From a virus: 64,000 nucleotides of DNA. Positions 52,673 to 54,119 of the stretch are shown piece after piece (position 1 is the first letter of the stretch; each line of letters opens with the position of its first letter). The DNA lies in the IMG/VR virus record IMGVR_UViG_3300029305_006397. One strand, written 5' to 3'. The notes below the pieces were generated by a model. It was not told the origin of the DNA. It did no database searches and saw nothing but the letters and a program-made list of their open reading frames with translations. Position numbers and translations under genes: made by a program.

Positions 52673-52743
52673 TGCTTCGAGACGGAATCGAACCGCCGAC
52701 AAGAGCCATTCCAGCTTTTACTCTTCCCCTGAGTTACCGAAGC
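52673..52743 (-). tRNA. aberrant tRNA (GAA at anticodon position, loop UGGAAUG, no CCA)
   Basis: Good acceptor, D and T arms (GCTTCGG ... GGCGG TTCGATT CCGTC TCGAAGC A). However, position 33 is G, position 37 is U, and the anticodon stem has one mismatch. Confidence 0.5.
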
Positions 52744-52746
52744 ATG

Positions 52747-52822
52747 TGGAGCTGGCGAAGGGACTTGAACCCGCAACCTGCTGATTACAAATCAGCTGCT
52801 CTGCCAATTGAGCTACGCCAGC
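52747..52822 (-). tRNA. tRNA-Thr(TGT), CCA encoded
   Basis: GCTGGCG TA GCTC AATTGGCA GAGC A GCTGA TTTGTAA TCAGC ... CGCCAGC T CCA. The T stem has one mismatch. Confidence 0.8.
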
Positions 52823-52831
52823 CCGATATAT

Positions 52832-52954
52832 TTACTGGGTTTCCAGTAAACGAATACGACGTTTGAGTTTATTGATAATGTTAACATTGACAACGGGATC
52901 GCGCATCTGCAGGATGTGCATGCGAATGGAGAGAGATTCGATAGAGTTTTTCAT
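52832..52954 (-). CDS. hypothetical 40-aa peptide
   Basis: MKNSIESLSIRMHILQMRDPVVNVNIINKLKRRIRLLETQ, with SD AAAGAGG. Below the ORF-track length cut-off. Confidence 0.35.
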   Translation of the reverse strand: MKNSIESLSIRMHILQMRDPVVNVNIINKLKRRIRLLETQ

Positions 52955-52984
52955 GGATTTGTACCTCTTTCATTGAATTTTAGA

Positions 52985-53061
52985 TGGAGCACCAGACGGG
53001 ACTCGAACCCGCAAACCTCCGGCTTGGAAGGCCAGCATTCTAACCATTGAACTACTGGTGC
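52985..53061 (-). tRNA. tRNA-Gly(TCC), CCA encoded
   Basis: GCACCAG ... CTGGC CTTCCAA GCCGG ... GCGGG TTCGAGT CCCGT CTGGTGC T CCA. Confidence 0.9.
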
Positions 53062-53131
53062 ATATACCCTAATCTGTTATCGTACAGATTGGTAGAAACG
53101 CCGGATTTGCACCGGGACTCGCGAGTGTCTT

Positions 53132-53180
53132 TGGGCGCAGCCAGGGATCGAACCCGGAAATCAAGACTTGGCTTCCTGCA
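53132..53180 (-). ncRNA. tRNA-like minihelix ending in CCA
   Basis: TGCAG (18 nt) CCGGG TTCGATC CCTGG CTGCG C CCA. A perfect T-arm stacks on a 5-bp acceptor-like stem, with no D or anticodon arm. Confidence 0.3.
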
Positions 53181-53316
53181 TTTTGCCTCTTAAATTACTG
53201 AGCCATAAAACTCCCGGTGGGTTCTCAGGCCCACATTGCCCGTTTACCGAAGCAGTGACGGCAGTCCTTCAGGTGATAAGCTTAAAGTCACCCTTGCGAA
53301 TTTGTACGACAGGAGT

Positions 53317-53402
53317 TGGTGAATACAATTGGATTCGAACCAATGCTCGACGACTGAGCCAAAGGCATGGGCCGTCCGTGCTAACCGCTACACCATATAT
53401 TC
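53317..53402 (-). ncRNA. 86-nt tRNA-like RNA with non-canonical anticodon region, CCA encoded
   Basis: Canonical acceptor (GAATATA/TGTATTC), D arm, T arm (ATTGG TTCGAAT CCAAT) and ACCA. The 33-nt central region has no convincing 5-bp stem with a 7-nt loop (best candidate is a weak GCC reading); instead a 6-bp stem GACGGC/GTCGTC forms. Confidence 0.5.
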
Positions 53403-53550
53403 ATGCATCCGACTAAGCAGTAGTCGGCACTGTGAAACACGCCGCGTGACACCTCGTCTGCGTCTGCGTCTGCGATTTCAATCAGTGATATCGCCACTGA
53501 TCCTCCCCTTGTCATCGGGAAAACTATCTTGACCAAGCGATATTTGGGAC

Positions 53551-53627
53551 TGGTGGGGGCCACAGGACTCGAACCTGTGACCGATCGGTTATGAGCCGAC
53601 TGCTCTGACCAACTGCGCTAGACCCCC
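53551..53627 (-). tRNA. tRNA-Met(CAT), or Ile2 if lysidinylated; CCA encoded
   Basis: GGGGGTC ... GTCGG CTCATAA CCGAT ... ACAGG TTCGAGT CCTGT GGCCCCC A CCA. Confidence 0.9.
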
Positions 53628-54006
53628 ATATGTAATGCCCCTGGTTGTATTAAATACATATGCATATGGATAGCTACGTCCCGCGAAGGAGTATTCGCGT
53701 GTATGCCTGACTTAAATCACGGACTCCAATTGTATTACTATGTGACGCATACTTTCGTTTTTATCCGCTATCTGGACGGGGCAGGTTAAGCGATAACCTA
53801 TGCCTTTCGACAACCCAGCCTCTAATAAGAGGCTGACGCTCATGGCCTAATGTCCTGTTTCAACTCGCCATGACGAGCAATCACCTGCAAGAATCGAACC
53901 TGCCTGGAAGTCAAGCTTCCTTTACTGCCGCCCAGAAGTGATTAAGATGGATTGTTTGACTTTAATTTGATAAGCGGAGGCCAAACAACCAAATTTCTCT
54001 CACGAT
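53628..54006 (-). ncRNA. structured non-coding block E of the tRNA island
   Basis: 379 nt with hairpins CGCGAA/TTCGCG, CAGCCTC/GAGGCTG and AGGTTA/TAACCT. Contains a degenerate tRNA-like element. Confidence 0.5.
53880..53942 (-). pseudogene. 63-nt degenerate tRNA-like element (Gln-like relic)
   Basis: 7-bp acceptor ATCACTT/AGGTGAT and T arm GCAGG TTCGATT CTTGC. The anticodon arm GGAAG CUUGA CUUCC has only a 5-nt loop, the D arm is truncated, and there is no CCA. Confidence 0.4.
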
Positions 54007-54092
54007 TGGTGCTGAGAAAGGGACTCGAACCCTCACGACCTCACAGCCAGCGGATTTTAAGTCCGCTGCGTCTGCCATTCCGCCATCTCAGC
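54007..54092 (-). tRNA. tRNA-Leu(TAA), type II, CCA encoded
   Basis: GCTGAGA TG GCGGAATGGCAGACGC A GCGGA CTTAAAA TCCGC, a long variable arm, then GAGGG TTCGAGT CCCTT TCTCAGC A CCA. Confidence 0.9.
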
Positions 54093-54096
54093 AGAT

Positions 54097-54119
54097 TGGT
54101 GGGCCTTAACGTCGGCCCA
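54097..54119 (-). ncRNA. hairpin ending in ACCA, 4 nt upstream of tRNA-Leu(TAA)
   Basis: T GGGCC GACGTTAA GGCCC A CCA. It mimics an acceptor end. Confidence 0.3.

Follow-up and report, generated by a model that had tools for sequence, protein, structure and literature searches.

The 64,000-nucleotide stretch of viral DNA analysed here (IMG/VR virus record IMGVR_UViG_3300029305_006397; hereafter the window) is part of the genome of a large gut phage: in the RtcB protein cluster that is identical to the window's own RtcB (P0001), the longest contig measures 146 kb. The window carries a module for replication and nucleotide metabolism (DNA polymerase, primase, a DnaB-like helicase, NrdD, an NAD-dependent ligase, a RecD-like helicase and ThyA) and, on the minus strand, the RNA ligase gene rtcB followed by a 4-kb array of tRNA and non-coding RNA genes. 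An initial annotation had flagged five minus-strand elements in this array as a single set of tRNA-like genes lacking a functional anticodon loop. We find instead that they fall into two groups. Three of them, the tRNA-like structures (TLS) TLS1, TLS3 and TLS4, are members of the array's conserved framework of non-tRNA RNAs. The other two, elements 2 and 5, lie within insertions confined to the lineage of the window.

The comparison was based on the contigs of RtcB homologues in a large protein database, the nearest of which are 95, 90 and 80% identical to the window's RtcB, and on contigs reached via orf87 and orf164, two genes restricted to this clade. It comprises several contigs of the window's own lineage at 99.96–100% identity, six of which span the rtcB–array region; a second lineage (L013 and L020–L023); a third lineage, L012, to which L025 and L026 probably belong; and L014, which covers only the start of the array. 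The genomes appear to be mosaic, because the proportion of synonymous differences (pS) between the window and L013 ranges from 0.09 in orf87, through 0.22 in orf164 and 0.41 in rtcB, to 0.50 in orf40. No close relatives were found in GenBank phages, IMG/VR (searched by RtcB, orf87 and DNA patterns), JGI metagenome contigs or GTDB genomes, and in the contigs whose RtcB is ~70% identical or less (L001–L007, L027 and L028) the array is not present after rtcB.

The array spans 54,698 to 50,775 on the minus strand and holds 10 canonical tRNAs with one strong promoter upstream; this promoter is likely the start of a polycistronic array transcript, and no terminator-like site was seen on the minus strand from 51400 to 54700. 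ARAGORN reports 12 tRNA-type genes in the 4-kb region downstream of rtcB. The non-tRNA framework, which is conserved, includes a pistol ribozyme, a RAGATH-36 RNA and several hairpin-rich blocks. The features on which the following argument draws are:

54730..55905, minus strand: RtcB RNA ligase gene, directly upstream of the array (PF01139 recorded for its cluster)
54670..54698, minus strand: sigma-70-type promoter, TTGACA-17-TAGTAT with TG, just downstream of rtcB and kept in four lineages
53879..53942, minus strand: TLS3, a 64-nt mini-cloverleaf with a 7-bp acceptor stem and a canonical T arm, conserved in L012 and L013
53809..53878, minus strand: pistol self-cleaving ribozyme (Rfam RF02679, 61.6 bits against a threshold of 34.5, full model 1–68)
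53628..53808, minus strand: RNA X, a non-coding block from the pistol to tRNA-Met, 96–98% identical across lineages (adjacent tRNA-Met 62–67%)
53205..53312, minus strand: RNA Y, the hairpin block 5′ of TLS4, 91–93% identity
53133..53204, minus strand: TLS4, a 72-nt cloverleaf (ARAGORN 'Trp CCA')
53062..53132, minus strand: hairpin-rich 71-nt tail from TLS4 to tRNA-Gly, 96–97% identity (97% against L013)
52672..52744, minus strand: TLS1, a complete cloverleaf (ARAGORN tRNA-Phe(GAA); Rfam tRNA 39.3 bits)
52392..52671, minus strand: RNA Z, a conserved 280-nt non-coding leader from TLS1 to orf87, 96% identity

The three conserved structures are set apart from the canonical tRNAs by their decoding features. 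The combination of Y32-U33, R37 and an encoded NCCA is seen in every one of the 11 canonical tRNAs in the window and in none of the three TLS (Fisher p = 0.0027): TLS1 and TLS4 have G33 and lack CCA, and TLS3 has a short loop and likewise lacks CCA. U33, present in every one of the 11, is absent from elements 1–4. The proposal that tRNA geometry had been kept without a decoding loop therefore stands for elements 1–4, which retain the acceptor and T arms and mostly the D arm, but not for element 5.

TLS1 is a cloverleaf with the loop UGGAAUG (G33, U37) and no CCA, as had been described; ARAGORN and the Rfam model agree. The discriminator is followed by AAC in place of CCA, the T-arm motif (GGTTCRANYCC type) is GGTTCGATTCC, and the Rfam tRNA scores of 39–43 bits lie above the RF00005 threshold of 29 bits. 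TLS1 starts 2–3 nt past the CCA of tRNA-Thr and is 97% identical between the window and L013. Its anticodon stem reads AAAGC/GCUCU in the window, with an A28·C42 mismatch, and a perfect AGAGC/GCUCU in the relatives. The discriminator is A in the window and L013 and G in L025. No complement to the loop was found elsewhere in the array. A hairpin in RNA Z, immediately downstream, shows a compensatory change from GCCG/CGGC to GUCG/CGAC in L025.

TLS3, previously recognised as a mini-tRNA with the loop CUUGA, indeed forms a mini-cloverleaf, of 64 nt. It has a 3-bp D stem with a 5-nt D loop containing GG, a 5-bp stem with a 5–6-nt loop, a 2-nt variable region and the T arm GCAGG UUCGAUU CUUGC; its discriminator is U and CCA is absent. 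It is found by neither ARAGORN nor the Rfam tRNA model. The 13 instances of the perfect T-arm motif in the window all lie on the minus strand, and that of TLS3 (GGTTCGATTCT, with one deviation from the GGTTCRANYCC type, at the last position) is the only one outside ARAGORN tRNAs. When the T arm was kept and the remainder shuffled, 7/7 pairing of the acceptor arose in 4.6% of the shuffles, and the support for TLS3 therefore comes from the combination of the acceptor with the T arm, the other stems and conservation. The loop differs in sequence and length among the three lineages (CUUGA, CUUAUU and UUUAAU). Seven of the eight variable columns are unpaired, and the single paired change, UA to UG in the D stem, keeps the pairing. 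In L012 and L013, TLS3 starts 4 nt past the CCA of tRNA-Leu(UAA).

TLS3 is joined to the pistol ribozyme without a gap, its discriminator lying at 53879 and position 1 of the pistol model at 53878. The ribozyme is 97% conserved in L012 and L013. From the family consensus, cleavage is predicted in the linker at G53814/U53813, before the last helix strand, and would leave a 5′-OH end on RNA X and a cyclic phosphate on TLS3-pistol. RtcB ligates 2′,3′-cyclic-phosphate and 5′-OH ends, which are the ends that such ribozymes make; the pistol lies ~850 nt downstream of the rtcB stop codon. A pistol-core pattern had 36 other matches in IMG/VR, at 31 loci, and at the 15 loci re-checked with Rfam every match was a pistol (55–78 bits). 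No tRNA or T arm lies in the 130 nt upstream of any of the 36, and five IMG/VR matches to a T-loop-plus-pistol pattern were chance matches; on these two results, the TLS-pistol fusion is specific to this clade. An unrelated IMG/VR contig (L036) has a GOLLD RNA (198 bits) ~360 nt from a pistol ribozyme (94–475 and 837–912, respectively).

The fourth element is real, but it had been taken for a T-arm minihelix ending in C-CCA and is in fact a full 72-nt cloverleaf; the 'CCCA' that follows it in the window is CCCT in the relatives, and so the CCA is not conserved. Its acceptor stem pairs at 6/7 positions, the D stem is AUUU/AAAU with G18G19, the anticodon stem CAGGA/UCUUG carries the loop AGCCAAG (G33), the T loop is UUCGAUC, the T-arm motif (GGTTCRANYCC type) is GGTTCGATCCC and the discriminator is C. 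The Rfam tRNA model gives no match to TLS4 at E ≤ 10. TLS4 is 97–99% identical across lineages (98.6% against L013), with a T-stem pair changed from GU to GC. It lacks the bacterial TrpRS identity set: its end pair and discriminator are G1-C72 and C73, as against A1-U72 and G73 in the canonical phage tRNA-Trp. These end features, together with the G discriminator of TLS1 in L025, argue against conserved aminoacylation. TLS4 lies within a conserved RNA block of 255 nt, with the 108 nt of RNA Y on its 5′ side and the 71-nt tail on its 3′ side; one hairpin of RNA Y shows a compensatory change from CCGU/ACGG to CCAU/AUGG. The loops of TLS3 (53911–53915) and TLS4 (53167–53173) are complementary, as CUUG-CAAG in the window and UUU-AAA in L012. 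A C to U change in TLS3 is matched by G38 to A in TLS4, which is one apparently compensatory change among three lineages and hence anecdotal; the complementarity could reflect a kissing interaction or coincidence.

The initial annotation had raised the possibility that these elements are decaying pseudogenes. For elements 1, 3 and 4 the pattern of change does not bear this out, and TLS1, TLS3 and TLS4 are evidently maintained by selection. They are present in every lineage that covers their position, with 90–99% identity from one lineage to another, against differences at 41–50% of synonymous sites in the flanking orf40 and rtcB. Pooled over the three, variable columns are rarer among paired positions (3/124) than among unpaired ones (11/84; p = 0.004). 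Of the three changes at paired positions, those in TLS4 (GU to GC) and TLS3 (UA to UG) preserve pairing, and the third is the A28·C42 mismatch in TLS1 of the window. Measured against the rates of nearer genes, p is below 1e-5 for the conservation of TLS1 and of TLS4, and for that of TLS3 it does not exceed 0.02. Against the lowest local neutral rate (0.088), TLS4, with 1 difference in 72 nt, gives p = 0.01. For TLS3, the claim of selection rests on stem-avoiding substitutions and retention in three lineages rather than on identity alone. In the T-arm-preserving shuffles, ARAGORN called a tRNA in 0/1000 cases for each of elements 1, 2 and 4. As usual for tRNAs, no z-score from minimum-free-energy folding was significant, and RNAalifold on three sequences was uninformative.

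The canonical tRNAs behave differently: they act as exchangeable cassettes at fixed slots, while the TLS persist. Between the window and L013 their identities are 80% (Lys), 77% (Leu(UAA)), 67% (Met) and 78% (Gly), compared with 80.5% for orf40. The slot that holds tRNA-Met(CAU) in the window (53551–53627) is occupied by a different Met(CAU) in L013 (2838–2914) and by Ile(UAU) in L012 (6424–6500). The canonical tRNA-Trp (51702–51777 in the window) has been cleanly deleted from L025 and L026, directly after the motif UAUGGCUCAA, which also forms the 5′ end of TLS4 (UAUGGCUCAGUAAU); the tRNA-Arg of L025 and L026 is another allele.

Elements 2 and 5 also follow the cassette pattern, and both are outside the conserved framework. 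The features concerned are:

53317..53402, minus strand: element 2 (TLS2), an 86-nt tRNA gene (Rfam tRNA 46.9 bits; ARAGORN 'tRNA-???')
53313..53545 (boundaries ± ~5 nt), minus strand: insertion of ~233 nt found only in the window lineage, after tRNA-Met-CCA; absent in L012 and L013
54097..54170, minus strand: insertion of 74 nt found only in the window lineage, directly after tRNA-Leu(CAA)-CCA and containing element 5; absent in L012 and L013
54097..54119, minus strand: element 5, a hairpin GGGCC/GGCCC plus ACCA, inside the 74-nt insertion

Element 2 was correctly described as an 86-nt gene ending in ACCA without a 5-bp/7-nt anticodon arm. Its acceptor, D and T arms are good, and a stem GACGG/UCGUC closes an 18-nt loop. 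With introns allowed, ARAGORN reads it as Glu(CUC) with an 11-nt insert after position 32 and a residual loop CGCUCAG, in which U33 is absent. We considered an intron-containing tRNA of the archaeal or eukaryal type and rejected it: a 3-4-3 bulge-helix-bulge cannot be drawn on GACGGC CCAU GCC UUU GGC UCA GUCGUC, and by inspection each 11-nt removal leaves G33 or C33, so that no 11-nt excision restores U33. The ~233-nt insertion consists of a 145-nt leader and element 2, is bounded by CACCA..TCC repeats and has no similar DNA in GenBank phages, IMG/VR or GTDB genomes. The leader contains a 14-nt piece resembling a Leu D arm (weak, z = 3.9); the idea that the leader is a decayed tRNA-Leu was dropped, this match being all that lay behind it. 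Like the canonical genes, element 2 carries ACCA and is cassette-like. It is a lineage-specific cassette, a tRNA gene disabled or re-purposed by the 11-nt loop insertion.

The hairpin described as element 5 exists, but it folds no better than shuffles (z = +0.26). The 74-nt insertion is flanked by a direct repeat CCCACCA (54171–54177 and 54097–54103), a 7-nt copy of the 3′ end of tRNA-Leu(CAA), and the 'ACCA end' of element 5 is therefore a duplicate of the Leu 3′ end. Element 5 is thus a by-product of insertion at a tRNA 3′ end. The insertion is found in all the 100%-identical contigs of the window lineage. A third insertion confined to this lineage, of 60 nt (53947–54006, minus strand), lies directly after tRNA-Leu(UAA)-CCA, and the position of all three directly 3′ of a tRNA CCA points to tRNA 3′ ends as sites of recombination or integration. 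Elements 2 and 5, cassettes gained by recombination at repeated tRNA 3′ ends, may well be relics; for both, selection can be judged from one lineage with identical copies only. Conservation in related phages, which had been put forward as a check on the whole set, thus divides it, since elements 1, 3 and 4 are conserved and elements 2 and 5 are absent from close relatives. The pseudogene interpretation is plausible for the latter pair.

What might TLS1, TLS3 and TLS4 do? Our preferred reading, plausible although we do not hold it to be probable, is that they are processing modules of the t-element type for the RNase P and RNase Z of the host. Each keeps the features used by the end-processing enzymes, namely a 7-bp acceptor stem stacked on 5 bp of T stem, a canonical T loop and a D loop that contains GG. 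Decoding features have been lost: U33 is missing, the loop of TLS3 varies in length and no CCA is encoded. An RNase P cut at the 5′ end of a TLS would free the upstream tRNA with a 3–4-nt trailer. RNase Z, which is blocked by CCA, would cut the CCA-less TLS after the discriminator and so give an exact 5′ end to the structured RNA downstream, which would be nucleotide 1 of the pistol for TLS3, the orf87 leader for TLS1 and the 71-nt tail for TLS4. Lacking U33, the stable tRNA-shaped by-products would not enter translation. This proposal rests on the non-random cloverleaves and their contrast with the canonical tRNAs, the abutment of TLS3 and the pistol, the position of TLS1 and (in L012 and L013) TLS3 2–4 nt past a tRNA CCA, the stem-avoiding substitutions, the persistence of the TLS beside exchangeable tRNAs, the predicted single transcript, the conserved CCA-less ends and the precedent of plant t-elements. 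It also takes up an earlier suggestion that the elements are tRNA-like handles of larger RNAs, which is the best fit to the anatomy (TLS3 fused to the pistol, TLS4 within a 255-nt block, TLS1 before a 280-nt leader).

Several observations sit uneasily with a role confined to processing. An acceptor stem and a T arm suffice for RNase P and RNase Z, yet the D and anticodon arms of TLS1 and TLS4 are complete, with nearly invariant loops that carry Phe and Trp anticodons, which hints at an additional or different function. TLS4 does not adjoin a canonical tRNA, and canonical tRNAs could do the same punctuation job. Phage T4 has functional CCA-less tRNAs, so a missing CCA alone is no proof of a non-tRNA role. 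The argument from conservation draws on three independent lineages of mosaic genomes, and at the lowest local neutral rate, that of orf87 next door to TLS1, the result for TLS1 is marginal (p = 0.045) and the identity of TLS3 is no different from neutral (p = 0.80).

The retained anticodon arms can also be taken as the functional part of the molecules. Some phage tRNAs are documented to escape host nucleases through changes in the anticodon loop (PMC10264068, PMC11464382), and TLS1 and TLS4, perhaps with element 2, might be counter-defence RNAs, either nuclease-resistant poor decoders or uncleavable decoys for tRNA-targeting nucleases, through the change of U33 to G and through G38. This is unlikely but deserves serious consideration: the array lies directly beside rtcB, which encodes a ligase that reseals 2′,3′-cyclic-phosphate/5′-OH breaks, the triplets GAA and CCA are kept in all lineages beside a non-canonical position 33, and the window already carries a canonical tRNA-Trp, which makes TLS4 redundant for decoding. 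However, G33 abolishes the U-turn required for decoding, TLS4 (G1-C72, C73) lacks the bacterial TrpRS identity set, the discriminator of TLS1 changes from A to G in L025, and neither TLS3 nor the junctions with the downstream RNAs would be explained. We know of no nuclease targeting Phe or Trp tRNAs in the host of this phage. Alternatively, TLS1 and TLS4 could mimic uncharged tRNAs, binding host T-box leaders with Phe UUC and Trp UGG specifiers and switching on aminoacyl-tRNA synthetase or amino-acid genes, a role also proposed for the Bacillus cereus pseudo-tRNA tRNA-Other (PMC3399842). The intact GAA and CCA anticodons and D/T elbow, together with the non-decoding features, would suit such a mimic, and the promoter and Shine-Dalgarno sequences are compatible, by a weak inference, with a Gram-positive host. 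Even so, we regard it as very unlikely, given that the NCCA end must be added after processing, that the TLS1 discriminator is not conserved and that TLS3 again goes unexplained. A composite scheme, in which TLS1 and TLS4 are G33-locked Phe and Trp mimics that neutralise tRNA-targeting immunity or switch on T-box genes while TLS3-pistol delivers a cyclic-phosphate end for RtcB in a programmed cleavage-and-ligation pathway, seems to us distinctly improbable.

Two further explanations would do without a new function. The elements could be relics without a function: pseudo-tRNAs that duplication, recombination and decay have left behind in an array that evolves fast. Elements 2 and 5 do occur in one lineage only, within insertions flanked by tRNA 3′-end repeats, and the weak Leu-like piece in the leader of element 2, the mismatch in TLS1 of the window that its relatives do not share, and the failure to find homologues outside the clade in GenBank phages, IMG/VR, GTDB genomes or JGI contigs all point the same way. 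For the set as a whole we nevertheless consider this rather unlikely, because TLS1, TLS3 and TLS4 occur in every covering lineage at 90–99% identity, whereas nearby canonical tRNAs and synonymous sites have diverged by 20–50%, and because TLS substitutions avoid stems or keep pairing. At the other extreme, TLS1, and perhaps TLS4, might be elongator tRNAs that work despite their odd loops. Each forms a complete cloverleaf, TLS1 exceeds the Rfam tRNA threshold and combines A73 with GAA where no other tRNA-Phe is seen in the window, and L025 and L026 lack a canonical tRNA-Trp. G33 in both and U37 in TLS1 stand against 11/11 canonical neighbours, however, and TLS4 fails the Rfam tRNA model and lacks the Trp identity elements, while the discriminator varies; of all the explanations considered, we give this one the least credence.

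We place the finding among the tRNA-like processing or pseudo-tRNA modules known from other systems; in this case they belong to a phage array and are combined with a self-cleaving ribozyme beside rtcB. In the MALAT1 and MEN-beta transcripts, mascRNA is a tRNA-like fold without a decoding loop that serves as an RNase P/RNase Z site bounding a larger non-coding RNA. That system is eukaryotic and nuclear and shares no sequence relationship with the present array, which has three modules in one operon; the Rfam mascRNA-menRNA model gave only a chance-level match, on a canonical tRNA. In plant mitochondria, RNase P and RNase Z cuts directed by tRNA-like t-elements make the ends of mRNAs (PMC1920247). 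Like the TLS, t-elements are non-canonical cloverleaves with a conserved GGTTCRANYCC T arm within long transcripts; RNase P cuts at their 5′ side and RNase Z after the discriminator, which sets the ends of the neighbouring RNAs and releases the t-element as a small RNA (PMC1920247). They sit in organelle mRNAs, whereas the TLS lie in a phage tRNA/non-coding RNA array beside a ribozyme and structured RNAs, where cleavage is inferred only. The closest analogue of TLS4, likened by description rather than sequence, is tRNA-Other of B. cereus, which is tRNA-shaped with a Trp (CCA) anticodon, untranslated and part of a larger RNA; it is, however, a chromosomal gene beside a genomic island, with proposed T-box- or sRNA-like roles (PMC3399842). 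The TLS3-pistol fusion resembles the theta (HDV-like) ribozymes of gut Caudoviricetes, which also self-cleave, lie immediately 3′ of a tRNA-shaped RNA and have been proposed to help form RNA ends (PMC10879173). A theta ribozyme cleaves at its own 5′ end, which frees the 3′ end of the tRNA, its partner being a suppressor tRNA (PMC10879173), whereas the pistol cuts near its own 3′ end, so that TLS3, a non-decoding mini-TLS, would stay attached unless cut by RNase Z. Finally, the nuclease-evading phage tRNAs share with the TLS a phage origin, anticodon stem-loops unlike those of the host and genomes with tRNA repair functions, but they keep canonical decoding geometry (PMC10264068, PMC11464382), whereas TLS1 and TLS4 lack U33.

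The genes of phage tRNA clusters are generally taken to be decoders, and those that look odd are dismissed as pseudogenes. Here it is the odd ones that are conserved best, while the genuine tRNAs are gained and lost as cassettes. Should the TLS be processing handles, phages have independently adopted the t-element/mascRNA solution and joined it with a self-cleaving ribozyme to cut a multi-RNA transcript, a design that synthetic biology builds deliberately, in arrays punctuated by tRNAs and ribozymes. Should they instead be decoys or T-box mimics, they would represent a new class of RNA-based host manipulation. Either way, annotation pipelines should not silently count TLS1 and TLS4 as tRNA-Phe and tRNA-Trp.

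The array has other constituents of interest. The RAGATH-36 RNA (51031–51192, minus strand; Rfam 73.2 bits) lies upstream of tRNA-Gln and has a counterpart at 5101–5270 in L013; the two score 73–75 bits and are only 71% identical to each other. RAGATH-36 is a family of unknown function that occurs near twister- and hammerhead-associated genes. The long non-coding blocks between the tRNAs (53628–53808, 53205–53312, 53062–53132, 52392–52671, 51778–52127 and 50850–51030, minus strand) are 90–98% identical across lineages and better conserved than the canonical tRNAs; some show compensatory changes, and none matched an Rfam family. The block at 51778–52127 holds a weak tRNA-like match (51949–52026; 19 bits, E = 2.6). 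The 220-nt leader between the promoter and tRNA-Lys has three ~30-nt copies (54439–54637) containing TTTGCA(C/T)(A/T)TAATGTTTAT, at spacings of 59 and 110 nt; these are candidate operators or binding sites. A 40-codon open reading frame between tRNA-Gly and tRNA-Thr (52832–52954, minus strand) probably encodes a real micro-protein within the RNA array, because it shows purifying selection (pS 0.50 against 0.11 at non-synonymous sites, pN, in the comparison with L013). The product of orf87 is a small basic protein encoded inside the array; it has no Pfam or PHROG match, and its predicted model, all-helical and of low confidence, has no structural neighbour. Elsewhere in the window, a class-V aminotransferase or cysteine-desulfurase-like protein (44120–45310, minus strand; PF00266, 1e-57) could relate to tRNA thiolation.

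Among the more distant contigs, L028, a phage contig with a 69%-identical RtcB, encodes a 1125-amino-acid protein with a eukaryotic-type RdRP domain (1116–4493; PF05183) and carries a putative ochre-suppressor tRNA (18902–18977) with the anticodon UUA and, in the ARAGORN register, a loop without U33. In the distant RtcB-carrying phages L006 (626–697) and L007 (541–612), a 'tRNA-Leu(UAA)' of 72 nt, a class-I size, lacks the encoded CCA that its neighbours have; it is possibly another non-canonical tRNA.

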